A stretch of 64,000 nt of DNA, taken from the NCBI GenBank assembly GCA_041660165.1, contig JBAZWW010000005.1, positions 16,191 to 80,190 of the forward strand. The letters are read 5' to 3'. The position numbers and the translations under genes were made by a program. Positions 15,563 to 27,711 of this stretch are shown piece after piece. The notes beneath the pieces are model-generated. The model saw only the letters and a program-made list of their open reading frames with translations. It searched no databases and had not been told where the DNA came from. Numbering within the stretch: position 1 is the first letter of the stretch; the number at the start of each line of letters is the position of its first letter. The DNA is from Patescibacteria group bacterium. Lineage in GTDB: Bacteria > Patescibacteriota > Patescibacteriia > UBA9934.

Positions 15563-15946
15563 GTGGACTCGACCATTGATGTGCATTACCTCGCTACAGA
15601 ATCATTACCGCCCAAGGATTGGGCCGATCTCTATTCCGGCGGTCCAGATAAGCTGATCAAAAACAGCCACCAGAGGCTCTGCGAACAAACAGGACAGTGT
15701 GCCAAACTTGTCGCCACATCAACGGGGACGATAGGCGGGACAAAAGTTTCCTTGTTTCACTACCAGCTGGATGCCGGGCAATTTGACCATCCAGGCGTGG
15801 TTTTGAATGAATATGTTATGGGGACAATTGGCGGGACAACGTATTATCAGTTGAGCCTGATAATTTCCTCAGAAACTTCAAATAAAATCACAGCCGAACG
15901 GGTCACGAAGTTCATGCAGATGGCCAGGACGTTCAACGTTGAGTAG
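15563..15946 (+). CDS. hypothetical protein
   Basis: ORF only. Confidence 0.4.
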   Translation: MDSTIDVHYLATESLPPKDWADLYSGGPDKLIKNSHQRLCEQTGQCAKLVATSTGTIGGTKVSLFHYQLDAGQFDHPGVVLNEYVMGTIGGTTYYQLSLIISSETSNKITAERVTKFMQMARTFNVE

Positions 15947-15970
15947 AAGTTCGGCCGGAGCTTTGACCGG

Positions 15971-16231
15971 GTGTTACACGGGTGTTACACTCCCAAGCTT
16001 GGTTCTGTCACGAAGAAGCGGATTAGGGGTGCGATTGAGAGTAGGCTCATGACCAGACCGGAGATTTTTGGGCTACCGCTCCGTCATTCCAAGAAAGGCG
16101 ATAGAAAACTACGTGTTGGGGATTATCGTGTCATCTTTCGTATCGGGCGGAGCCAAGTGAAGGTGTATCTTATTGAACATCGCTCCGTTGTGTACAAGAT
16201 GCTCATGCAACGAGTACGGAAAGAATTTTAG
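15971..16231 (+). CDS. RelE/ParE-family toxin-like protein (possibly N-terminally degraded, no antitoxin seen)
   Basis: C-terminal region GDYRVIFRIGRSQVKVYLIEHRSVVYK aligns with RelE core; N-terminal 20 aa look non-native. Confidence 0.5.
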   Translation: MLHGCYTPKLGSVTKKRIRGAIESRLMTRPEIFGLPLRHSKKGDRKLRVGDYRVIFRIGRSQVKVYLIEHRSVVYKMLMQRVRKEF

Positions 16232-16358
16232 CTTCACTAATTTATGTTCCTTGCCCACATTCCGGCTGGCGCGGTTTGTTGGCGGTGTTTGCGGTGATGG
16301 CGTTTCTGTTGGGCGGAGACAGGCAGAAAAAACCGTGCGCGTGCTACACTATGGGCAT

Positions 16359-16625
16359 ATGAAAAATGTGATCAGTGCGCATCGCGTTGGTCTGGCCTTT
16401 GGCGGAGTGCTTGGGTTGTGGCATTTGGCGTGGTCCGTCATGGTGGCGCTTGGCATTGCCCAGCCATTCATGGATTGGATCCTTCAGCTTCACATGATTG
16501 AATTGTCATACAGGGTTTTGCCGTTTGCTCCGCTCATGGCGCTTGGGCTCATTATTGTCACATCAGCCTTTGGCTACATCATTGGCTACGTCCTTGGTAC
16601 TCTTTGGAACGCCGTGCAAAAGTAA
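16359..16625 (+). CDS. small membrane protein (3 TM)
   Basis: hydrophobic 88-aa ORF; longer ORF from 16173 overlaps RelE-like gene. Confidence 0.4.
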   Translation: MKNVISAHRVGLAFGGVLGLWHLAWSVMVALGIAQPFMDWILQLHMIELSYRVLPFAPLMALGLIIVTSAFGYIIGYVLGTLWNAVQK

Positions 16626-16645
16626 TTTTGGTTCAGCGTTATTTT

Positions 16646-17266
16646 ATGATGACTGCCTGGACTCCGGCCGAGCGCAAAATATTGAAGACGCTGTCTACGC
16701 CAGCCAAGATCCAGGATTTTGTGAACTCGCTTGAATATCGAGTATCGGGTGATAACGAGACGTGTCTGTCTCCCCGCCGAGTGCTTGAGGAAAGAAACGC
16801 GCAGTGCATAGAGGGCGCCATGTTCGCTGCGTCGGCTTTACGAGTGAATGGTTTCCCACCGCTCATTGTCGATCTGGAATCCTCGGTGAATGATTACGAC
16901 CACGTGATTACGGTCTATCAAATTCACGGGCACTGGGGGGCGATTTCAAAAACGAATCATGGGGTGTTGCGATACCGCGAGCCGGTCTATCGAACGATTC
17001 GAGAACTCGTGATGAGTTACTTTCACGAGTATTTCTTGCAGTCCACGCGCGCCAAAACATTACGAGCCTTTTCAAAGCCGGTGGATCTTTCCCGGTTTGA
17101 CAAACAAGAGTGGGAAACGAGCGCAGAGCCTCTTTGGTACATCCCGGAATATCTGCTGACTATTCCGCACTCGCCTATCTTAACGAAAAGCCAAATCGCC
17201 CGCCTTAGAAAAGCCGATCCCGTAGAAGTTGCCATGGGCGAAATTGTCGAGTGGCCGGAAAGATGA
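16646..17266 (+). CDS. hypothetical protein (possible Cys/His hydrolase fold)
   Basis: conserved-looking C..C..H pattern (AQCIEGAMFAASAL, DHVITVYQIHGHWG); assignment tentative. Confidence 0.4.
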   Translation: MMTAWTPAERKILKTLSTPAKIQDFVNSLEYRVSGDNETCLSPRRVLEERNAQCIEGAMFAASALRVNGFPPLIVDLESSVNDYDHVITVYQIHGHWGAISKTNHGVLRYREPVYRTIRELVMSYFHEYFLQSTRAKTLRAFSKPVDLSRFDKQEWETSAEPLWYIPEYLLTIPHSPILTKSQIARLRKADPVEVAMGEIVEWPER

Positions 17267-17282
17267 TACACATCTTGAATCT

Positions 17283-17996
17283 ATGCACATCTTCCTCATC
17301 TGCGGGTATGGGATTCCACGGGACATTTTTACTGATGAAAATTATCGGACGTATTTGAGCGTGGTGTTTAATAAGATGTATGCGATCTCGGCGGGGAAAG
17401 AGATGGAGATTATTCCTTGTGGAGGGCCAACGGCTATGGAACCGCCGTATGAAGGAACTGAGGCGGGGATAATAGCCAAGTATTTGCGCAAGCAGATTGA
17501 GAATCAGAAACTCGAACAGGCTACGAGTGCTTGGAAGACGATCCTTGAAGACCAGTCGCTTTCCACGCTCGAAAATTTGGTGTTTGCAAAGCGGATACTT
17601 GACGAACAAAAACTTGCCGGGACGATAACGATTTTTTGTGAGGAGACCAGGCGCGAGCGAATCGTGAAAACTGCGCAGATGATTTTCGGATCCGAGTGCA
17701 CGGTTGAGGCGATTGATTTTGATGCCTCGAAAAACCGATATCTTGATCCAAACGTCATCCAGCAAAAGGAGCACGCCGCGCTTCGGGAATCACTTTGGAC
17801 GCTCGAAGATAAAACAAGATTGGAAAAGCATCACGAGTTTCAAAAACAGAAGATTGAGTACTTTAGAGAACGCCAAGCACAAGGGATCCCGCACGTTGAT
17901 GTTGTGGGAGAGTGGTATAAGAAAATGCCGGAGATCGTGAAACAGCTGATGCCGGATCACCCGTTACTCGCAGAGCTGAACAAAAAGAATGTATAG
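17283..17996 (+). CDS. hypothetical protein (DUF218/YdcF-like features)
   Basis: IFLICGYG ... IIPCGGPT pattern; tentative. Confidence 0.4.
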   Translation: MHIFLICGYGIPRDIFTDENYRTYLSVVFNKMYAISAGKEMEIIPCGGPTAMEPPYEGTEAGIIAKYLRKQIENQKLEQATSAWKTILEDQSLSTLENLVFAKRILDEQKLAGTITIFCEETRRERIVKTAQMIFGSECTVEAIDFDASKNRYLDPNVIQQKEHAALRESLWTLEDKTRLEKHHEFQKQKIEYFRERQAQGIPHVDVVGEWYKKMPEIVKQLMPDHPLLAELNKKNV

Positions 17997-18385
17997 TGAA
18001 GCCGAACCCGACAAAAAATATGAAAAAAATCGCGCTTATCATTCTTGCCATCATTGGCGGAGTTTTCGTCCTCCTCTTCGTTGCTGTGGCTGTTTACATT
18101 GCTGTTGCCAAGCCGTTTGGCGTGAAATTGACGAGTATTCCTGGTGCGGTTATTCAGGCGGGAACGGGGAAAGTGAAAAGCACGTATGACCATCCACTGT
18201 TGACTACGGAGCAGGAAAGCGCGCTTGAATCGCTTGGCGTGGATACTCGAACACTTCCCACGAGTGTGACGCCAGCGTTGATTGATTGCTTTACTACAAA
18301 GCTTGGCCAAGCCCGCGCTAAGGAGATTCAGGGAGGGTCAACCATCACTCCGGCGGACTACTTTAAGGCGCAGAGCTGTTTATAG
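17996..18385 (+). CDS. hypothetical membrane-anchored protein
   Basis: N-terminal TM (IALIILAIIGGVFVLLFVAVAVYIAV). Confidence 0.4.
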   Translation: MKPNPTKNMKKIALIILAIIGGVFVLLFVAVAVYIAVAKPFGVKLTSIPGAVIQAGTGKVKSTYDHPLLTTEQESALESLGVDTRTLPTSVTPALIDCFTTKLGQARAKEIQGGSTITPADYFKAQSCL

Positions 18386-18659
18386 ACATGTTGCCCCTGG
18401 CTATTCTGAAGGAATGCTGTTATGGTGCGATCCTATCAAATGGACGCCACCTTAAAGGCTCCGGTACGCACAACACTATGACGGACGACACAACGGTGAC
18501 GACTGATGACACGGCAGTAACGGCTCCGGCTACGGAAGAGACAACTGAGGAAACAGTTGCTCCGGTAGCTACAGAAGAGGTGGCAGCGTAAGCTCCCGGT
18601 TCTACAAGAAATCCTGCTCGGCAGAGCGGGATTTTTTGTTTGGGAGTAAACTAGGGTCT

Positions 18660-20480
18660 ATGCGAGCATTTTTTGCTGAGCCTCAGCGCGAATATCTGTT
18701 GATCGGTCTGTTGGCCGGGGCGTTTGGCGTTGATCTTTTTGTGCATGAGCCAATGGTGCTGTTTGTGATTGCCGGTCTGGCGGTGATCCCTACGTTTCTG
18801 AATGCGGGAAAAGCGATCGTACGATTCCGCATTAACATTGATACGTTCAATGCGTTTGCCGTGATTGTTTCATTTGCTACGGGCGAGGCCTATTCTGCGG
18901 GGTTTATTGCACTCATGCTGACGTTTGCGCGTTTGCTTGATTGGCGCACGGAACAGCGCACGGAAAACGCGGTTGAGGAACTGATGCGCTTGAAACCGCT
19001 CACGGCTTTGGTCGAGCGGAAGGGAAAAATGGTCGAGGTAAAGGCTGACACGATCAAGACAGGCGACATTGTTCTTGTGAAAAGTGGAGCGCGCGTGCCG
19101 GTTGACGGAGTGATCGTGAAGGGCGCCGGTCACGTCAACGAGGCCACGGTGACGGGAGAGTCTGAACCGATTGAGAAAATGGCCGGGGACCGCGTGATTA
19201 GCTCTACGCTTGTTGAGGCGGGAGCACTGACGGTTAGGGCAACGCAGGTTGGCAAGGACTCGACCATTGAGCGGATGGCGGAACTCATGCGCCAAGCGGG
19301 ACTTAAGAAATCGCACTCTGAGAAACTTGCAGACCGGTTTGCGATGATTTTTCTTCCGCTCGTGGGCGTGCTTGGCGTTGTAACGTATATCGCGACGCAA
19401 AATCTGTTGATGGTGGCCGCGCTTTTTTTGATCGCTTGCGCAGATGACATGGCGGTGGCAATTCCGCTGGCCATGACTGCCTCACTTGGCCAGGCTGCCA
19501 AGCGCGGGGTGATTGTGAAGGGTGGGCAAGCGCTTGAGGTGCTGGGCAAAATGCAGATTCTAGTGCTCGACAAAACGGGTACGCTGACACTTGGCAATCT
19601 TTCGGTGAGGAACGTCCGAGTGAACGAGGGAACCTCAAAAGATACTTTTTGGAAAGCACTAGCTTCTGCAGAGAAGTATTCAGAGCATCCCGTTGGACGT
19701 TCGGCGTATAAGGAGGCTGTCCGCAGGGTTGGCGAGGCGAGTGATCCAGACGAGTTCAAACTCTATAAAGGAAGCGGGGTGGTTGTTCGAGTCGGGAATG
19801 ATAAGATTGTGGCTGGCACTGAGCGTCTGTTTGCCGAGCTTGGTTTGAGCGCGCCAAAATCTTTCGAGGGGGCACTTGGTTCCGTGTTTTGGGTGGCGGT
19901 GAATGGCAAGGAAATCGGGGCGGTTGAGGTGGCAGACGTTCCACGCCCTGAGGCAGGGAAGAGTTTGCGAAGGCTGAAGAAACTCGGCGTCAAGAGGGTC
20001 ATCATGTTTACGGGGGACAATGAACGGGTAGCGACTGAGGTAGCTAAGGCGCTTGGCATCAAGGAGTATCGCTCGGCCATGACTCCTGAAGCAAAACTGC
20101 GGGCGCTTGAAGAGCTTTTGCCTGAGGGGCCAGTGGGTATGCTTGGCGATGGTGTGAATGATGCGCCAGCACTGGCGCGCGCTGATGTGGGCATTGCTAT
20201 GGGTAGCGGGGGAGCCGCGGTGTCCGTTGAGGCGGCGGATATTGTTATCATGACGGATGATCTCTCGCGTTTACCGGAGATGGTTGAACTTGGCAGAAGG
20301 ACATTTGCAGTGGTGAAGGGTGATGCGGTTATTTGGGTGTTGTCGAACGTTATTGGCTTTGGCCTTGTTTTTACTGGCATTGCCGGCCCGGCCCTGGCCG
20401 CCTTTTATAACTTTGCCACGGATTTCCTGCCACTCATGAACTCCAGCCGGCTGTTCCGGCGAGCCCGTCAACAGAAATAG
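18660..20480 (+). CDS. P-type ATPase (P1B-like topology, cation-transporting)
   Basis: TGES actuator, DKTGTLT phosphorylation site, GDGVNDAPAL hinge; 4+2+2 TM; TM6 has CAD in place of the canonical CPC. Confidence 0.85.
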   Translation: MRAFFAEPQREYLLIGLLAGAFGVDLFVHEPMVLFVIAGLAVIPTFLNAGKAIVRFRINIDTFNAFAVIVSFATGEAYSAGFIALMLTFARLLDWRTEQRTENAVEELMRLKPLTALVERKGKMVEVKADTIKTGDIVLVKSGARVPVDGVIVKGAGHVNEATVTGESEPIEKMAGDRVISSTLVEAGALTVRATQVGKDSTIERMAELMRQAGLKKSHSEKLADRFAMIFLPLVGVLGVVTYIATQNLLMVAALFLIACADDMAVAIPLAMTASLGQAAKRGVIVKGGQALEVLGKMQILVLDKTGTLTLGNLSVRNVRVNEGTSKDTFWKALASAEKYSEHPVGRSAYKEAVRRVGEASDPDEFKLYKGSGVVVRVGNDKIVAGTERLFAELGLSAPKSFEGALGSVFWVAVNGKEIGAVEVADVPRPEAGKSLRRLKKLGVKRVIMFTGDNERVATEVAKALGIKEYRSAMTPEAKLRALEELLPEGPVGMLGDGVNDAPALARADVGIAMGSGGAAVSVEAADIVIMTDDLSRLPEMVELGRRTFAVVKGDAVIWVLSNVIGFGLVFTGIAGPALAAFYNFATDFLPLMNSSRLFRRARQQK

Positions 20481-20530
20481 CCAGAAGTTCGTGCTATGCT
20501 GTATAAAAATATATTATTTATTAGAGGCAT

Positions 20531-22306
20531 ATGACGATGGTGAAGCGGTTTATTGGGGGAGTTGCAGTGTGTTCTGTGCTCCTTGGTCTGATCGGGCCAG
20601 TATCAGTCTCGGCAGCCACCACGGCGCCAACTCTTGGCGCGGCATCCGGGTATTCAGTTTTTGGCAGTGCCGGAGTAACGGACGCGGGCGGGTCATCTAT
20701 GTGGGGAGATGTAGGTGAGAACGGCGCCGGAGACGGCAGTACCGCAGGCGAGATGGCAGGTTCACTGCATACCGTGGCAGAACCTACGGTTGTCAGCGCA
20801 ATTTCTTCAGCCTATGGTGATTTGAACACCCAAGCGCAAACGGGCGTTGGTATCCTTGACCTGCACGGGTCTCCTTCAGTTGGACCTGGCGTATATGACG
20901 TAGCCGCTACCGCCTTTGACTCAACCCTGACACTGACTGGAGCGGGCGTGTATATTTTTAGGAGTACATCAAGTATTGCGCAGAGCGCAGGCGGGACCAT
21001 GCTTTTGACGGGCGGAGCTACCGCTTGCAATGTTTACTGGCAGATTCCTAACTCCATGACCTTTGCCGCCGCGGGGAGCATTGCCGGCACCATTATTACG
21101 AACACCGGCCTCATCTCAATGGTTTCGGGCGTGTCTTTGCAGGGCCGGGCGTGGGCGCACACCGCCGTAACCCTGGATAATGACACAATCACTGAACCGG
21201 TTTGTGCGGCTGCTCCTCCGGTGGCTTCCAGCACGTACACTGGCACGATTAATGTGGTGAAGCTGGTGGTGAATGATAACGGAGGGACCAAGACGGTTTC
21301 GGATTTTCCGCTGTTTGTAAACACCGTTCCCGTTACTTCCGGATTCACCAATAGTTTTCCTGCAAATTCCACCTTGTACACGGTGAGCGAAACGAATAAT
21401 GCTGGCTACGCACATACTTTTTCTGGTGATTGTGATGAGAATGGCGTCATGTATTTACAAGGGGCTCAGCACCTGTTTTGTATCATAACCAATAATGACA
21501 TTGGTCCAGCTATTATTGTTCCGCCTGTGCCACCGGTGATTGATGTGGTGAAGGTGCCGAGTCCCCTGGCCTTGCCGGCAGGTCCCGGATCCGTTACCTA
21601 CACCTATACCGTTCGCAACATTGGGACCGTACCAATGACGAATGTCACGCTGGTGGGTGATACCTGTAGTCCGATCGTGCTGTCTTCTGGCGATGCGAAC
21701 TCGGATGCCACGCTTCAAGTGAGTGAAACATGGACTTTCCGTTGTACCACCGTGCTCCAGGCTACGCACACCAATACGGTGGTGGCCACGGGTTGGGCCA
21801 ACGGGATCAGTGCTACGGACATTGCCAGCGCCACGGTGATTGTGGGTACGCCTGTTGTTCCACCGCTTATTCACGTCACAAAAGTGCCGAGTCCCCTTGC
21901 GCTTCGGGCTGGCGGGGGAGCGGTAACGTATACGGAAAAGATTACCAATCCAGGCACTGTCGCGCTCAGTAACGTCCGGTTGGTTGACGACAAGTGTAGT
22001 CCTATGGCGTACGTCTCCGGAGACGCGAATAATGATTCGCTTCTTCAGACAACGGAGACCTGGACATACACTTGCCGAGCCAATCTTACGGCCACAATGA
22101 CGAATACGGCTATTGCCACGGGCGAGGGCAACGGCTACACGGTTCGGGACATTGCCATTGCTACGGTAGTGGTAGCCGCCGCGGTTCCAGCCTTGCCAAA
22201 CGCTGGTTTTGGCCCAACGGAGATGAACATGCTGTGGGCACTCCTGGCCTCCGGCGCATCGGTGGCTTCTCTCTTATTCATCTTGAGGAAGAAACAAAAC
22301 GCCTAG
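20531..22306 (+). CDS. sortase-anchored surface protein: ice-binding-like (DUF3494) domain + two DUF11 repeats + LPNAG sorting signal
   Basis: signal peptide; LGAASGYSVFGSAGVTDAGG.. beta-helix-like region; two ~100-aa repeats (VTKVPSPLAL...TETWTYTC); C-terminal LPNAG + TM + RKKQNA. Confidence 0.75.
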   Translation: MTMVKRFIGGVAVCSVLLGLIGPVSVSAATTAPTLGAASGYSVFGSAGVTDAGGSSMWGDVGENGAGDGSTAGEMAGSLHTVAEPTVVSAISSAYGDLNTQAQTGVGILDLHGSPSVGPGVYDVAATAFDSTLTLTGAGVYIFRSTSSIAQSAGGTMLLTGGATACNVYWQIPNSMTFAAAGSIAGTIITNTGLISMVSGVSLQGRAWAHTAVTLDNDTITEPVCAAAPPVASSTYTGTINVVKLVVNDNGGTKTVSDFPLFVNTVPVTSGFTNSFPANSTLYTVSETNNAGYAHTFSGDCDENGVMYLQGAQHLFCIITNNDIGPAIIVPPVPPVIDVVKVPSPLALPAGPGSVTYTYTVRNIGTVPMTNVTLVGDTCSPIVLSSGDANSDATLQVSETWTFRCTTVLQATHTNTVVATGWANGISATDIASATVIVGTPVVPPLIHVTKVPSPLALRAGGGAVTYTEKITNPGTVALSNVRLVDDKCSPMAYVSGDANNDSLLQTTETWTYTCRANLTATMTNTAIATGEGNGYTVRDIAIATVVVAAAVPALPNAGFGPTEMNMLWALLASGASVASLLFILRKKQNA

Positions 22307-22313
22307 TAAATTA

Positions 22314-23030
22314 GTGAAGGAAGGAAGCGTTGAGCCGTACGAATTTTCGTCCGGCTCTTCGTGTATCAGGCTTATGCGGAACTGGCTATTGAACATTTTG
22401 GCGGGCTGCGCCATGACGCTAGCGCTTTTTGGTCTGCTCCTGTACCACGGAGTACTTTCTTATGCGGCCGTTCCAGCAAGCGTGATCGTCCCGTCAGAAG
22501 CGCGGTTGACAGCAACGGCGTCGGCACCTGTGCTGGCGGGAAAGATTGAAGCCACAGCCGCAAAGAAGATTATTAAAAAAACGGCACCGACGTCTCGGCT
22601 CTCTATTCCGAGCCTTGGTGTGAATGCAATTATTGAACATGTTGGGTTGACCGCGCAGGGATCCATGGGCGTACCAAGAGATCCCATGAACGCCGGTTGG
22701 TATGAGTTTGGTCCGCGTCCCGGAGAACTAGGGAGCGCGGTTATTGATGGGCATGTTAACTGGTTTAGGGGGGCAACTGGGGTATTTGCCAATCTTCAAT
22801 TGGTGAAACCTGGTGCAAAAATTACGGTGCGCAGTGAGGATGGCAAGGCCGTTACTTTTGTGGTTCATGAGGTGAGAACGTTCGACCCATCTGCGAATGC
22901 GGAGGAGATTTTTAGCTCGGGCGATGGCCAATCGCATTTAAATCTTATCACCTGCGGGGGAGTGTGGGATAAGAAGACTCAGCAATATTCCGAGCGGATT
23001 GTGGTCTTTGCTGATAAAATAGGAGAATAA
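22314..23030 (+). CDS. sortase family transpeptidase
   Basis: N-terminal TM, catalytic His (VIDGHVNWF), TLxTC motif as NLITCGG, conserved Arg region. Confidence 0.8.
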   Translation: MKEGSVEPYEFSSGSSCIRLMRNWLLNILAGCAMTLALFGLLLYHGVLSYAAVPASVIVPSEARLTATASAPVLAGKIEATAAKKIIKKTAPTSRLSIPSLGVNAIIEHVGLTAQGSMGVPRDPMNAGWYEFGPRPGELGSAVIDGHVNWFRGATGVFANLQLVKPGAKITVRSEDGKAVTFVVHEVRTFDPSANAEEIFSSGDGQSHLNLITCGGVWDKKTQQYSERIVVFADKIGE

Positions 23031-23035
23031 GTCGA

Positions 23036-23185
23036 ATGGCAACGGTCACCGTTGCCTCCGCGGTGCCGATACTCCCGAATACCGGGTATACTCCAACAGT
23101 AATGAATCTCCTTTGGACTATGCTCGCCACTGCCTTCTCAGGACTGTCGCTCATTTTCGTCTTGCGTACTGCCAAACAGATATAA
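23036..23185 (+). CDS. 49-aa peptide consisting only of a sortase sorting signal (LPNTG + TM + basic tail)
   Basis: not in ORF track (<60 aa); MATVTVASAVPILPNTGYTPTVMNLLWTMLATAFSGLSLIFVLRTAKQI; paralogous to C-terminus of 20531..22306. Confidence 0.45.
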   Translation: MATVTVASAVPILPNTGYTPTVMNLLWTMLATAFSGLSLIFVLRTAKQI

Positions 23186-23186
23186 T

Positions 23187-23684
23187 ATGAAAAATATCGC
23201 GTTTATCACCATGGGTTTTGCGGGGGGAATCGTTGGAACAAGCTTGATCGTCTCAGTCTTCCTTCTTTCAAAGAAACCAATTACACATCATATGCCCTTT
23301 CAAACGAACATCATGAAAGTTACCGCGGATAACACGGATTTCAGGCACGTCATCTTTACTGGTGCAACGTCTCAATTGGTGGTTATGAGCATTCCGCCAG
23401 GAGGAGAGGTAGGCCAGGAGACACACAAGGACGTTGAACAAATGCTGTACTTCCAAACAGGCACGGGCGAGGCCATTTTGGACGGCAAGACGTCAGCCAT
23501 TGTTCCTGGCGATATTGTTGTGGTCACCCCAGGAACACAGCACAACTTCAAGAACACGGGAAAGGTGCCCATGAAGATCATGACCATGTACGCTCCGCCG
23601 AATCATATTGACGGGCGTATTCAAAAGACAAAGGCAGACGCAGATAAAGACAAGGCAGATGAGGCTTTTGGCGAGGCGCAGTAA
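23187..23684 (+). CDS. membrane-anchored cupin-domain protein
   Basis: N-terminal TM then cupin_2 motifs (GQETHKDVEQMLYFQTGTG..PGTQHNFKNTG). Confidence 0.65.
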   Translation: MKNIAFITMGFAGGIVGTSLIVSVFLLSKKPITHHMPFQTNIMKVTADNTDFRHVIFTGATSQLVVMSIPPGGEVGQETHKDVEQMLYFQTGTGEAILDGKTSAIVPGDIVVVTPGTQHNFKNTGKVPMKIMTMYAPPNHIDGRIQKTKADADKDKADEAFGEAQ

Positions 23685-23685
23685 T

Positions 23686-26600
23686 ATGCTTCACAAGCGC
23701 ATAAGTTTTTGGCTTAAGCACCGATTACATCGGATCATTTTGCCGATTCTTGTTGCGATCACGGTACCAACATTGACAGCTTCACTCCTTCTCCATCCCG
23801 CCTACGCAGCGACCATTACGTGGGACGGCGGTGGTGCGGATGGCACATGTGGTGGCGGAGCAGGAGACGGAAACAAATGGTCATGTGCGTTGAACTGGTC
23901 GGGTGACACTCTGCCGGGTGCCGGTGATGCGGTTGTGTTTGATGCAACCTCGACTAAGAACGCCACGGTTGATGCAGGATTTGCGGGAACGGTGACGAGT
24001 ATCAGCATGAACGCTGGTTATACGGGAACCATCACCATGGCCAGATCACTTACGACGAGTGCGATATTCACCCAGGCTGACGGAGTATTTACCGCAGACA
24101 GCCAGTCGTTAACGATCGGCACAGACTTCTCATTGACGGGCGGTGCGTTTACCGCTTCATCGGGTACCATGTTGATTGGTGGGAACTTCACGCACTCGGC
24201 AGGAACGTTTACGCACAATAGTGGAACGGTACGGCTCTCGGGTGCAACCCCGACACTTTCTGGTGCTACTACGTTTAACAATTTTTACGTTGCAACAACG
24301 ACAAATCTTGACGTCACGTTGACGTTGCCTGCGTCGCTTACCACGACAGTGCTTGGCACTACGCGACTTTTAGCCAGTACGCATAACACGCCTGCTGATA
24401 ATAAGCTGACAATTGTCAGTAGTTCTTCCGGTGTTCAGACGAGCGTGGATTTTCAGGGGACTCTCGCCATGTTCGCAGCTCATGTTACTGATGTGAATAA
24501 TGTTGGAGCTAGTCAAATACATTGTTATTCCCAATGCATTGACAACGGAAACAATACGAACGTTCGGTTCGGCGAACCGGGATTTGTGATTACGCAAGCA
24601 TCTAATAATGTGACAGAGGCTGGTGCAACTGCAACGTTTACCGTGGCACTTCGTGGCAAGCCCACCGCGAACGTGACCATTCCTGTATCGGCATCAGACT
24701 CTACAGAGGCAAGCGTTTCACCCGCCTCTCTTGTTTTCACCTCGTTAAATTACGTAACCCCGCAGACCGTTACCGTTACGGGCGTTGATGACACCACGGA
24801 TGACGGAGGGATCGCTTCCTCCATCGTCCTTGCTGTTCCCACGAGCGCTGACACGCTCTATGGTGTTTTGAATCCCGTAGACGTTTCCCTCTTTACTGAA
24901 GACGATGATCAGGATTTGATGACCGTTGATTTTGATAATAGCGCAACGTTGACCGAAGAAGATGTGAAAGGCACCGTCGCCTGGTTTGATCGGACAGATC
25001 AGGGCGAGGGCGTTTTCCGTACGGGAGATGGCGGATCTGCGGTGAGTCTGACCGGTACGAAGATCCTGCCGGGTTGTCGGGCCACAGTTGGCGGAGTTGA
25101 TTATCGAATTTTACGGGTAAGCCCGATCACTACCGGACAAGCGCTTCTCACGGACGGCATAACGTCTCCTGATCAAATATATCTCACACTTGTTGATTCC
25201 GCGGTTTCAAAGATTGTTTGCACCACAGAGCCGGTTGATACTGCTCAACTTGGCGGTAGCACCTCGCGTATTTCTGTTGGGAGTTTGAATCTCTTGTCGG
25301 CCGGTGCCGGACACGGTGGAATTTTGGCGGATGAAACGAATGGACGTATTTGGTTGGGTAACGCCGGTGTTCCGGCTTTGATCGAGGTTTCAATGGCTAC
25401 CGGTCTTGAAGTAGCAAGAAAATCAATGACCAGTTATTCATATAATTTCGTCCTTGATCCGACGCGAAATAGGCTTTGGTTTGCCGATTATAATAGTAAC
25501 AAATTGGTTGCGTTTGATGCGGGTACGGGTGATTATGCATTCGGGACGCTTGGGGCGAGTTCATTTACGGTTTCTGGCCATGCATGGGATGTAGTGTATA
25601 ACCCAGACCTTGATGAGATTTGGGTTGCTACCTTACCGTCGAGCAAACTCATAAGAGTGAATTCAGCAAATGGAGCAGTGATAGATACGGTCGTTTTGGG
25701 CATTGAGGCTAATGGAATTGTTTATGATTCCATTCAGCACGCTGTTTGGATTTCTGGTGGCAATACTTTCAGTACCGCTCTGTATAAATTCTCAGCAACA
25801 ACGGGGACGTTTGCGAATGGAACGTTATTAGCGAGTACGTACCCGATCCCCGGATATGCGGACAGCGGGGACGACTCGATTCGTTTTGACGCGACAAGAA
25901 ATACTATTTGGGTGCTGTCTGCATTTGAAGCTGACGGCGCTGATCCGTTGGTAAAAGTAGACGCCGCAACGGGAAATGTCCTGGCTTCATATGACACGGG
26001 TACTTATGCAGAGGGTCTTGATGTTGATACGGTTCTAGGCAGGGTATATGTTGGTTATTCTAACGTTGATCTTGGGCCTCCTGGAGGCGAATCAACAGGG
26101 GTCATTGTATTTGATGCGGATACCGGTGATCGATTGGCCACATATCCTATAAGTGGCGGTCTTCTGCAATTCGCCTTTCAAAGCAACAACACGCTTTGGA
26201 GCTACAGTTCCTATCCTGATAATGAGTTGGATCAGTTAATAATTGGCGCATCTCCCGCCGGTAAGTACTACACCACGCTCACGACTGCATCTTCAAACCT
26301 CGACTTTGCCGGGACAAACAAAATGGCCTCGGCGGTTGCCTCAGAATCTCTCGATGGCGGGAATGCTTACTACACAATTTCTTTCAATGCTCGGCAGAGT
26401 TTTAAGGTCTTTAGTGGTGGCTGGAGAACGGTCGCGTCGAGTTTGGCCACTGACCACGGTGGCGTTAACGGCAATTGGTATTACAGGAACGATGCAAGCG
26501 CGTGGTCGGTGGCGCCGACGAACACTTCTGCGGAAGCAATTTCTCTTGCGGTCGAGAATGGCGCCACGAACAATCGGATGACGGGTACGAATCTCTCTGG

Positions 26601-27711
26601 AATCTCTCCCGGCAATTGGGCAAATACGGGAGGTTTCTCCACCACAACTGCCAATCTTGATCTGGCCGTCACTCTTGAAGCTGACAGCGTGACCAGCAAC
26701 CCCGCGGTTGACTCTGTAGTGTTTACGCTGGCAGGCGAGGGTTCTTCCGTTGCGCAGAGTGTGACGAACGCATCTGTTTCGATTGCTGACGACGAAACGT
26801 GCACCCCGACCGCTGATACCTCGCTTCACCTTGTGGCAGCGAACGCTTCGAGCGTCCGCGTGTCAAACGAACCGTTCGCCGTGGGAGACTCGAGCGAATA
26901 CATTTCGTTTGTTGCGGATGAGAATATCCCCATTACGCCAAGCGCCTCAGGCTCATTTATTCGTACGATGACCCTACCGTGGACTCTTTCTTCGGGTGAT
27001 GGTGAGAAGACCGTCTACGCGCAGTTCCGTACCGCAACCGGAGGCGTGTCTTCCGAGGTCTCGGACACGATCACTCTTTCGGCCGCGTGTTCTGTCATTC
27101 CGCCGGTTGAACCCGTAGTGCCCGTTGAACCTCCCGCTGAGCCCGCGGTCCCTCCGGTTTTACCAGCTGAGCCAGTTCAGCCAACTGTTCCTCTTCTTGA
27201 GGCTGGTTCTTATGTGAGAACGGCGTCCTCTTCCGCGGTCTACTATATTAGTGCTGATGGTCTGCGTCGGCCGTTCTATTCTGCCACGGAGTTCTTTACG
27301 TATGAGAAGGACTTTTCTCAGGTGCGTGTATTGGCTGATGAAGAGCTGAGAAACTATCCCATTGGCAAGCCTATGCCGCCAAAGCCTGGCGTGGTACTTT
27401 TGAAAATGGTGAGTTCGCCCGATGTATATGCATTTGATCCAAATGCTACGATAGACAATCCGCTTATCCACTTGATTCCAACAGAAATTCTGGCCGTTCA
27501 GTTGTTTGACACGCACTGGGCTGATTACATTATTGATCTTGACCCTACGGCCTTTGTTCATCTCACTATTGGGGACCCGTTGAATGGCCACTCAACCGTT
27601 GATGCTACACATCTCATGAGACGAGTGGCGATTGTTGAGCGAATAGCCAGCTTCCTTAGATCTGTTGTGTCCCAAATTGAAGGTTTCGTAATGAATTTGT
27701 TCGGAAGGTAA
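23686..27711 (+). CDS. very large exported protein with Calx-beta/cadherin-like domain, YVTN-type beta-propeller repeats and Pro-rich linker
   Basis: N-terminal signal/TM; FVITQASNNVTEAGATATFTVALRG..VTVTGVDD; six or more ~40-aa repeats (..IWV.., ..KLV.FDA.TG..); PPVEPVVPVEPPAEPAVPPVLPAEPVQP linker; start chosen at Met right after cupin stop. Confidence 0.7.
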   Translation: MLHKRISFWLKHRLHRIILPILVAITVPTLTASLLLHPAYAATITWDGGGADGTCGGGAGDGNKWSCALNWSGDTLPGAGDAVVFDATSTKNATVDAGFAGTVTSISMNAGYTGTITMARSLTTSAIFTQADGVFTADSQSLTIGTDFSLTGGAFTASSGTMLIGGNFTHSAGTFTHNSGTVRLSGATPTLSGATTFNNFYVATTTNLDVTLTLPASLTTTVLGTTRLLASTHNTPADNKLTIVSSSSGVQTSVDFQGTLAMFAAHVTDVNNVGASQIHCYSQCIDNGNNTNVRFGEPGFVITQASNNVTEAGATATFTVALRGKPTANVTIPVSASDSTEASVSPASLVFTSLNYVTPQTVTVTGVDDTTDDGGIASSIVLAVPTSADTLYGVLNPVDVSLFTEDDDQDLMTVDFDNSATLTEEDVKGTVAWFDRTDQGEGVFRTGDGGSAVSLTGTKILPGCRATVGGVDYRILRVSPITTGQALLTDGITSPDQIYLTLVDSAVSKIVCTTEPVDTAQLGGSTSRISVGSLNLLSAGAGHGGILADETNGRIWLGNAGVPALIEVSMATGLEVARKSMTSYSYNFVLDPTRNRLWFADYNSNKLVAFDAGTGDYAFGTLGASSFTVSGHAWDVVYNPDLDEIWVATLPSSKLIRVNSANGAVIDTVVLGIEANGIVYDSIQHAVWISGGNTFSTALYKFSATTGTFANGTLLASTYPIPGYADSGDDSIRFDATRNTIWVLSAFEADGADPLVKVDAATGNVLASYDTGTYAEGLDVDTVLGRVYVGYSNVDLGPPGGESTGVIVFDADTGDRLATYPISGGLLQFAFQSNNTLWSYSSYPDNELDQLIIGASPAGKYYTTLTTASSNLDFAGTNKMASAVASESLDGGNAYYTISFNARQSFKVFSGGWRTVASSLATDHGGVNGNWYYRNDASAWSVAPTNTSAEAISLAVENGATNNRMTGTNLSGISPGNWANTGGFSTTTANLDLAVTLEADSVTSNPAVDSVVFTLAGEGSSVAQSVTNASVSIADDETCTPTADTSLHLVAANASSVRVSNEPFAVGDSSEYISFVADENIPITPSASGSFIRTMTLPWTLSSGDGEKTVYAQFRTATGGVSSEVSDTITLSAACSVIPPVEPVVPVEPPAEPAVPPVLPAEPVQPTVPLLEAGSYVRTASSSAVYYISADGLRRPFYSATEFFTYEKDFSQVRVLADEELRNYPIGKPMPPKPGVVLLKMVSSPDVYAFDPNATIDNPLIHLIPTEILAVQLFDTHWADYIIDLDPTAFVHLTIGDPLNGHSTVDATHLMRRVAIVERIASFLRSVVSQIEGFVMNLFGR

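Follow-up and report, generated by a model that had tools for sequence, protein, structure and literature searches.

In the genome of a Patescibacteria group bacterium, five open reading frames (ORFs) are arrayed at positions 20531-27711 of a 64,000-nucleotide stretch of contig JBAZWW010000005.1, hereafter the window. All lie on the + strand, with intergenic gaps of 1-7 nt in the ORF listing, and they encode, in order, a surface protein (protein A), a sortase, a 49-amino-acid (aa) product, a small cupin and a large protein (protein E). By its named homologs, the organism belongs to the Patescibacteria, or candidate phyla radiation (CPR). What is the working unit of this locus? We consider it probable that its core is a two-gene module of protein A and a dedicated class F-like sortase, with the cupin, protein E and the 49-aa ORF as non-obligate neighbours. 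An earlier reading made from the DNA letters (the sequence-only reading) had joined all five ORFs, each of which is present and co-directional, into one cell-surface apparatus with two giant surface proteins. The sortase and its surface protein remain from that proposal, and protein E counts 1341 aa from its ATG rather than the 1342 aa first reported. Protein A, at only 591 aa, is not giant, and the integration of five genes did not hold: orthologs of E and cupins are found elsewhere, and the 49-aa ORF is limited to one genome.

The five genes are as follows.
20531-22306, + strand: protein A gene, 591 aa
22374-23030, + strand: sortase gene, class F-like with an N-terminal membrane anchor (Pfam, NCBIfam); 218 aa from ATG 22374, with alternative starts GTG 22314 (238 aa) and ATG 22413 (205 aa)
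23036-23185, + strand: 49-aa ORF
23187-23684, + strand: cupin gene, 165 aa
23686-27711, + strand: protein E gene, 1341 aa from ATG

A substrate-sortase dyad across the CPR

One genome per species (GTDB) was scanned with an alignment of 31 sortases, the best 80 loci were used, all of them in CPR-type metagenome-assembled genomes, and the ORFs of these loci were searched with the window's own domains. Loci are cited below by L numbers and related proteins by P numbers. Directly upstream of the sortase, on the same strand, 68 of the 80 loci encode a protein with an ice-binding-protein-like (IBP-like) domain, a CLIPPER_2 domain or both; this upstream protein bears an LPxTG signal, and many CPR lineages are covered. 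Three more loci stop at a contig edge and two have the fused form of the pair only, while L010 and L043 have a cupin gene that separates the substrate gene from that of the sortase. LPNTG is the motif in 30 of the sortase loci. An ortholog of A that is 69% identical lies upstream of the sortase in L008. Locus order and sorting signals, the two features that the sequence-only reading had singled out for checking, both came through for A and the sortase, the first in the 68 loci just described and the second as the LPNAG signal of A.

In six loci, substrate and sortase form one continuous ORF.
L027, 5844-8420: substrate-sortase fusion
L056, 6261-8588: substrate-sortase fusion
L057, 5949-8429: substrate-sortase fusion
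L066, 6091-8079: substrate-sortase fusion
L063, 8609-10780: substrate-sortase fusion
L086, 8947-10623: substrate-sortase fusion

The first four of these (L027, L056, L057 and L066) have an LP[KN]TG motif followed ~15-40 residues on by the sortase domain, with no intervening membrane segment; the L063 and L086 fusions have two membrane segments and a sorting signal between substrate and sortase. Such fusions provide a Rosetta-stone link and are strong evidence that both proteins work together. We know of no earlier description of self-contained sortase-substrate fusion proteins. The functional unit of the locus is the two-gene dyad, A plus sortase.

A second IBP-like paralog, ~400-450 aa long and without a sorting signal, was observed directly upstream of the LPxTG substrate in L050, L056, L063, L064, L066, L070, L077, L080 and L086. 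The window has no such paralog upstream of A.

To which class does the sortase belong? The window enzyme matches Pfam Sortase (PF04203) at 76.1 bits, against a gathering score of 26.6, and its His127, Cys194 and Arg208 are invariant across the 31-homolog alignment, from which the catalytic codons were assigned.
22752-22754, + strand: catalytic His codon
22953-22955, + strand: catalytic Cys codon
22995-22997, + strand: catalytic Arg codon

The sequence-only reading had called the enzyme class A/E-like, a call that has to be replaced. Among NCBIfam models, class F (NF033748) matches best, at 132.9 bits and E=7e-39 but under its curated cut-off of 166, and it leads the other sortase classes by 33 orders of magnitude in E-value; the class E model reaches 19.7 bits (E=6e-4), and the class A model is not among the NCBIfam matches. 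Homologs at 55% identity to the window sortase are labelled "class F sortase" by NCBI. Since the best match is class F and the score falls under the curated cut-off, the enzyme is filed here as class F-like and not as a certified class F member. The public gene call begins at ATG 22413 (205 aa), and exact-sequence look-ups of the products starting at GTG 22314 and ATG 22374 returned no match. Some sortase homologs (P0141, P0171, P0175, P0181, P0195, P0208) carry an N-terminal SLH domain (PF00395) or a C-terminal PG_binding_1 domain (PF01471).

Protein A as a predicted surface adhesin

Judged by its sequence, protein A is a sortase substrate with a fibrillar-adhesin-like architecture, made up of the following parts.
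20531-20614, + strand: predicted Sec-type signal peptide, aa 1-28, with the cut between VSVSA and ATT (inferred, read from sequence)
20624-21211, + strand: ice-binding-like (DUF3494) beta-solenoid, aa 32-227 (Pfam PF11999, PDB 5uyt)
21233-21505, + strand: SpaA_2-like prealbumin-fold (CnaB-like) stalk domain, aa ~235-325 (weak Pfam SpaA_2)
21530-22174, + strand: two CLIPPER_2 (DUF7507) CnaA-like stalk domains, aa 334-441 and 442-548 (Pfam PF24346)
22193-22306, + strand: cell-wall sorting signal, LPNAG (22193-22207), hydrophobic stretch and RKKQNA (sequence, regex scan)

The IBP-like DUF3494 domain proposed earlier is borne out by a match to Pfam Ice_binding (PF11999) at 78.3 bits, with a gathering cut-off of 28.7, and by matches of aa 32-227 to ice-binding proteins in the PDB, the best of which is 5uyt (E=6e-26). 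This beta-solenoid is likely the distal binding module of A. Behind it comes the SpaA_2-like domain, whose Pfam match (E=3.7e-4, 21.5 bits) lies under the cut-off of 25 and which is present in 48 related loci. The next two domains had been read as a pair of DUF11 repeats. There are indeed two repeats, but their family is CLIPPER_2 (PF24346), matched in two stretches at 43.2 bits with a cut-off of 27, whereas DUF11 proper scores 19.6 bits, below its cut-off of 24.6. CLIPPER_2/DUF7507 is a sister family of DUF11 and has a CnaA-like fold with an internal Lys-Asn isopeptide bond (PMC12617251). Across 143 CLIPPER_2 instances from the related loci, the candidate Lys is conserved in 93%, the Asp in 82%, the Asn in 94% and a Cys pair in 99%; the two domains of A carry a putative Lys/Asp/Asn isopeptide triad together with the Cys pair.

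The C-terminus of A is as the sequence-only reading had it, and both the sequence and the regex scan give a tripartite sorting signal of LPNAG, 19 hydrophobic residues and RKKQNA. Position 4 of the motif is Ala, not Thr, and LPxAG variants also occur in L047, L076, L042 and L025. The window contains two motifs, LPNAG (22193-22207) in full-length A and LPNTG (23072-23086) in the 49-aa ORF, the latter being the form seen in most A orthologs.

How would the pair operate? The Sec signal peptide would direct protein A to export, and the hydrophobic segment and basic tail at its C-terminus would retain it in the membrane. The membrane-anchored sortase would cut LPNAG between Ala and Gly, using its His-Cys-Arg triad, and would pass A to an amino group of a peptidoglycan precursor, so that A ends up covalently on the cell wall. 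Mature A would be a short fibrillar adhesin whose stalk, of one SpaA_2-like and two CLIPPER_2 domains, is probably locked by internal isopeptide and disulfide bonds and holds the ice-binding-like beta-solenoid, as the binding module, out from the cell. Protein E would be secreted and held by a separate C-terminal module.

Ice_binding is counted among the adhesive domains of fibrillar adhesins (PMC8286594), and the ice-binding-like fold is found in choice-of-anchor A adhesins bearing LPXTG (bioRxiv 10.1101/2023.03.06.531300). With an Ice_binding head and a stalk of isopeptide domains, A matches what the literature defines as a fibrillar adhesin-like protein (PMC8286594, PMC12617251). Fibrillar adhesins with an Ice_binding/choice-of-anchor A (pAdhesive_15) head have the same layout as A, from signal peptide to LPXTG (PMC8286594, PMC12617251, bioRxiv 10.1101/2023.03.06.531300), and like A have Ig-like stalk domains, whose Lys/Asp/Asn triads have putative equivalents in A; their own isopeptide-bonded stalk is of CLIPPER/CnaA/CnaB type. 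A differs from them in its short stalk (three domains in a protein of 591 aa in total) and in its CPR host. Its adhesin-like architecture makes host-cell or particle binding in an episymbiotic life plausible.

Could A instead be a genuine antifreeze or ice-binding protein that cells of frozen habitats expose on their surface? Such a function would suit its strong matches, to Pfam Ice_binding as well as to ice-binding proteins with crystal structures, and some of the related loci (e.g. L019, L029, L070) come from palsa or fen metagenomes of permafrost regions. We nevertheless find this highly improbable: A scores 44.6 bits on the NCBIfam ice-binding equivalog NF045625, for which the cut-off is 400, and the dyad is found in CPR bacteria from many habitats, among them groundwater, lakes and soil. 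The DUF3494 fold, moreover, is widespread in organisms without ice-related biology.

The stalk of A raises a second alternative, that the sortase links A subunits into a fibre resembling a pilus, in the manner of class C sortases acting on CnaA/CnaB pilins. The SpaA_2-like and CnaA-like CLIPPER_2 domains are of pilin type, the sortase is dedicated and adjacent to its substrate in most CPR genomes, and the physiological role of class F sortases has been called unknown (PMC13251363). This sortase is class F-like, however, and no class C sortase; the window holds a single substrate gene, and a 200-aa beta-solenoid on every subunit would be unlike major pilins. No pilin-motif lysine was recognised in A by eye, with no motif search run, and the conserved lysines are those expected for internal isopeptide bonds. 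Polymerisation therefore appears unlikely to us. The Pam pilus of the CPR (bioRxiv 10.64898/2026.03.03.709456) was also considered and rejected, being a donor-strand exchange system without a sortase.

The cupin, protein E and the 49-aa ORF

Three further genes follow the dyad, of which the cupin recurs most often beside it in other genomes.
23187-23684, + strand: small cupin with a predicted membrane anchor, transmembrane segment aa ~4-27, Cupin_2 domain aa 66-134 (Pfam Cupin_2)

As the sequence-only reading had proposed, the product is a membrane-anchored cupin, with a match to Cupin_2 (PF07883) at 54.2 bits (gathering score 27.2) and a hydrophobic segment at the N-terminus. The closest solved structure is BH2720 (PDB 2OA2), at E=3e-17 over aa 36-152; from small cupins of the BH2720 type the window protein differs in its N-terminal membrane anchor. 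A cupin adjoins the sortase, within 3 kb, in ~10 loci (L008, L010, L011, L019, L023, L029, L043, L047, L070, L098). In a metagenome scan, the ten closest relatives of the window cupin showed 62-78% identity, and only the one in L098 lies beside a sortase, the other nine, at 62-72%, being elsewhere; the relative in L091 has a wholly different gene neighbourhood. The cupin is a recurrent but facultative neighbour of the dyad and is conserved independently of it.

Protein E is predicted to be a secreted multidomain surface protein and no sortase substrate. The regex scan found no sorting signal of any kind at its C-terminus, including the non-canonical one for which the sequence-only reading had suggested a check. 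A public protein collection contains E as an identical 1341-aa product (P0001), and full-length homologs were found in Patescibacteria only. Its parts are listed here with, where modelled, the predicted local distance difference test score (pLDDT).
23686-23808, + strand: predicted Sec signal peptide, aa 1-41, with the cut between HPAYA and AT (inferred from sequence; the first 86 aa are 63% conserved with the L008 paralog)
24598-24915, + strand: Calx-beta-like beta-sandwich, aa 305-410 (alignment with homolog repeats)
25318-26250, + strand: YVTN-type seven-bladed beta-propeller, aa ~545-855 (AlphaFold model and Foldseek)
26758-27090, + strand: Ig-like domain, aa ~1025-1135, common to the L008 paralog (model, generic Ig/E-set fold matches)
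27094-27195, + strand: Pro-rich linker, aa 1137-1170 (sequence; pLDDT <50)
27196-27708, + strand: E_C, a conserved C-terminal alpha/beta domain, aa ~1171-1305, plus a 28-aa terminal helix (pLDDT 85-92)

Pfam searches with whole E and six pieces of it returned nothing significant, nor did a PDB sequence search; the domains of E were therefore assigned transitively and by fold. Calx-beta (PF03160) gives no direct Pfam match in E at E<5, and the Calx-beta-like domain of the sequence-only reading is supported through homologs: aa 305-410 align (1e-15 to 1e-25) with the Pfam-called Calx-beta repeats of P0017, P0026 and P0028, and the region is modelled at pLDDT ~80-94. The AlphaFold prediction for aa 296-1010, with a mean pLDDT of 75, recovers the YVTN propeller; the propeller region, mostly at 80-95, has seven blades. 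Foldseek against the PDB returned 1L0Q as the best match to it (E=7e-14), followed by Lp49 and YncE (TM 0.74-0.79 for YncE), and the NCBIfam YncE model adds weak support at the sequence level (E=0.0014). In the model of aa 1005-1341 (pLDDT 78), an Ig-like domain is followed by a disordered Pro-rich linker, which corresponds to the Pro-rich stalk noted earlier, and then by an alpha/beta domain and a helix of 28 residues; a fold search of the PDB with this C-terminal model matched the Ig-like part only.

The best fold matches to the propeller are thus 1L0Q, an archaeal S-layer protein with tandem YVTN propeller and PKD domains, YncE of E. coli and Lp49 of Leptospira. Like E, 1L0Q and Lp49 are cell-surface proteins. 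Sequence identity of these matches to the E propeller is only ~13%. Beyond what these three offer, E has a beta-solenoid-like N-terminal region, the Calx-beta-like and Ig-like domains and a CPR-specific C-terminal domain.

Does E belong with the dyad? Four orthologs of E (P0002, P0005, P0006 and P0009, at 76%, 57%, 55% and 46% identity) are neighbours of rarA and/or rsmB in regions without a sortase, two of them between rarA and rsmB, and the genome of P0005 has an A-sortase dyad at a separate site (L006). Compared with the large protein of L008, E is 63% identical over the first 86 aa and 48% over the last 318 aa, while the middle differs, which looks like cassette exchange of a passenger between fixed export and anchor ends. 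The middle parts comprise a Calx-beta-like domain and a YVTN propeller in the window (23686-27711), and SBBP-like repeats with a Big/Invasin domain in L008 (6942-10517).

The C-terminal domain of E, E_C, comprises ~135 aa and occupies either the N- or the C-terminal end of numerous other proteins secreted by CPR bacteria; it has no match in Pfam. Proteins with the domain include the following.
Window, 27196-27708: E_C of protein E
L022, 11693-13150: E_C-domain protein
L018, 8615-10990: E_C-domain protein
L018, 2233-5844: E_C-domain protein
L006, 788-1942: E_C-domain protein
L020, 1163-6169: E_C-domain protein

E_C replaces the sorting signal in the IBP-like protein of L022 and, just downstream of the sortase, in a protein of L018 with SpaA_2 and two CLIPPER_2 domains. 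Because E_C stands where the LPXTG signal would, choice-of-anchor logic suggests that it is an anchor module; we regard it as a putative alternative surface anchor, sortase-independent and non-covalent. The pattern …VYYI..G.RRPF…FFTY…PMPPKPG…WADYVIDLD… is seen in E and its orthologs, and in looser form in distant copies. A word-indexed homolog search with the E_C letters gave no match although P0002 to P0116 contain the domain, and this was judged a search miss.

The third neighbour lies between sortase and cupin.
23036-23185, + strand: 49-aa ORF, sorting signal only, with LPNTG (23072-23086), hydrophobic stretch and RTAKQI (sequence, regex scan)

Its content agrees with the sorting-signal-only peptide of the sequence-only reading; 12 residues precede LPNTG, and the hydrophobic stretch and RTAKQI follow. 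At the protein level it is 54-56% identical to the sorting signals of A and of the A orthologs in L008 and L006, while its DNA is only 56% identical to the 3' end of A. Against the A tails, the proportion of nonsynonymous differences (pN) is 0.33 and that of synonymous differences (pS) is 0.69-0.83, about 0.75 and saturated. Recent duplication of the 3' end of A was rejected as its origin, given this DNA identity and the saturated synonymous sites. The ORF reads as an old paralogous sorting signal that was selected for most of its history.

Where, then, did it come from? The 49-aa ORF is absent between sortase and cupin in L008, and the 80 diverse sortase loci contain no comparable ORF. When 1.84 billion representative proteins were searched exhaustively with phmmer, the sole matches were the ORF itself and the C-terminal ends of two long proteins, with no short relative. 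It is known from one genome only; the further copy, in the 8.5-kb Logan contig L001, is no independent one, as L001 is 100% identical to window 15573-24057 and represents the same population. Some loci have a second substrate gene, which separates sortase from cupin in L011 and L029 and lies downstream of the sortase in L016, L018 and L051. Most likely, a second substrate gene between sortase and cupin recently lost its interior in the window, and the 49-aa ORF is the tail that was left.

Alternatively, the ORF may be a working micro-protein, either a tail-anchored substrate made of a sorting signal only or a decoy or regulator that occupies the sortase. In the former case it would insert into the membrane tail first and be cut at LPNTG, its 16-residue N-terminal peptide passing to the wall, to A or to another protein; in the latter it would be a competitor that tunes sortase activity towards the LPNAG substrate. 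The ORF ends 1 nt before the cupin start, has AGGAG ~10 nt upstream, is also called by the public gene caller and offers a canonical LPNTG where A has LPNAG. The contrast of pN with saturated pS does indicate long-term selection on the sorting-signal features. A recent full-length substrate with this tail, arranged as in L011, L029, L016, L018 or L051, would explain that selection equally well, however, and both the restriction to one genome and the lack of any such ORF in the 80 loci, or of a short relative among 1.84e9 representatives, speak against a working micro-protein. We know of no natural sortase substrate made of a sorting signal alone. A micro-protein therefore seems to us quite improbable, and the deletion remnant is preferred.

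Might all five genes nonetheless form one adhesion apparatus, in which the cupin modifies or matures surface proteins and E is displayed with the help of the sortase? The tight co-directional packing of the five genes would suit such a unit, as would the presence of a cupin within 3 kb of the sortase in the ~10 loci named above and the gene order of L008, which matches that of the window. Yet E lacks a sorting signal, and in four genomes its orthologs are found at rarA and/or rsmB away from any sortase, one of these genomes having its dyad elsewhere; of the ten closest cupins, only one is linked to a sortase. As long co-directional gene runs are usual in the CPR, tight packing is weak functional evidence, and L008 is the only locus that repeats the window gene order. 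On balance we doubt that a five-gene apparatus exists, and the two-gene module of A and sortase remains our interpretation.

Several points weigh against that module. The gene order A, sortase, cupin, E-like protein is maintained in L008, the nearest informative relative, and in the lineage of L008 and the window the cupin and the large protein may have some functional tie to the dyad. LPNAG is a minority variant, the majority of A orthologs having LPNTG, and the sortase scores under the class F cut-off. The cleavage of LPNAG, the acceptor nucleophile and the wall attachment of A are all proposed by analogy with known sortases. Finally, the 49-aa ORF is intact, is preceded by the Shine-Dalgarno-like AGGAG and retains all features of a sorting signal with pN well below pS, features that a plain pseudogene is not expected to keep for long.

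Known systems and genomic setting

SrtB and IsdC of Staphylococcus aureus are a dedicated pair of sortase and substrate genes. As in the window, the sortase there is encoded beside a presumed single substrate with a non-canonical motif, LPNAG in the case of A. The CPR dyad differs in its sortase class, has no iron-uptake context and spans a superphylum rather than a few genera. A second comparison is with the class F sortase of Propionibacterium/Cutibacterium acnes (SrtF, NF033748), with which the window enzyme shares the sortase fold, the His-Cys-Arg triad, an N-terminal anchor and, by prediction, an LPXTG-type substrate; it differs in falling below the curated cut-off and in coming from the CPR, not from Actinomycetota. 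Whereas the window sortase is paired with one neighbouring substrate, the class F enzyme of P. acnes is described as housekeeping (PMC13251363), and in Actinoplanes no phenotype came from its four class F enzymes (PMC13251363). CPR bacteria are known to be enriched in sortases (PMC6744442). In the literature searched, CPR sortase substrates were not described, and nothing was found that links DUF3494 with sortases or a sortase with a cupin, or that reports sortase fusions in Patescibacteria.

Why does this locus matter? Taken alone, the window yields mostly annotation with corrections; it is a largely ordinary locus, and a sortase with its cognate LPXTG adhesin is an already known kind of system. 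Of greater interest are the CPR-wide dyad, its natural substrate-sortase fusions above all, and a terminal domain that is specific to the CPR and found in alternation with the sorting signal. Together, the window and the 80 related loci point to a single cognate substrate of the CPR class F-like sortase, an ice-binding-like adhesin with an isopeptide stalk. Protein A and its sortase offer a concrete pair that is testable in vitro, and A is a candidate surface protein to track in cultivated episymbionts.

The five-gene run is flanked on the same strand by genes for a P-type ATPase, a DUF218 protein, an AAA-type kinase-like protein, a DUF1003 protein and a major facilitator superfamily (MFS) transporter, which are housekeeping and transport genes unrelated to the sortase locus. 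Two small genes upstream of the dyad (window 16604-17266 and 17996-18385) have homologs directly downstream of the dyad in L006 (10602-11216 and 11799-12182). The neighbourhood upstream of the dyad is thus partly retained, but rearranged, in L006.

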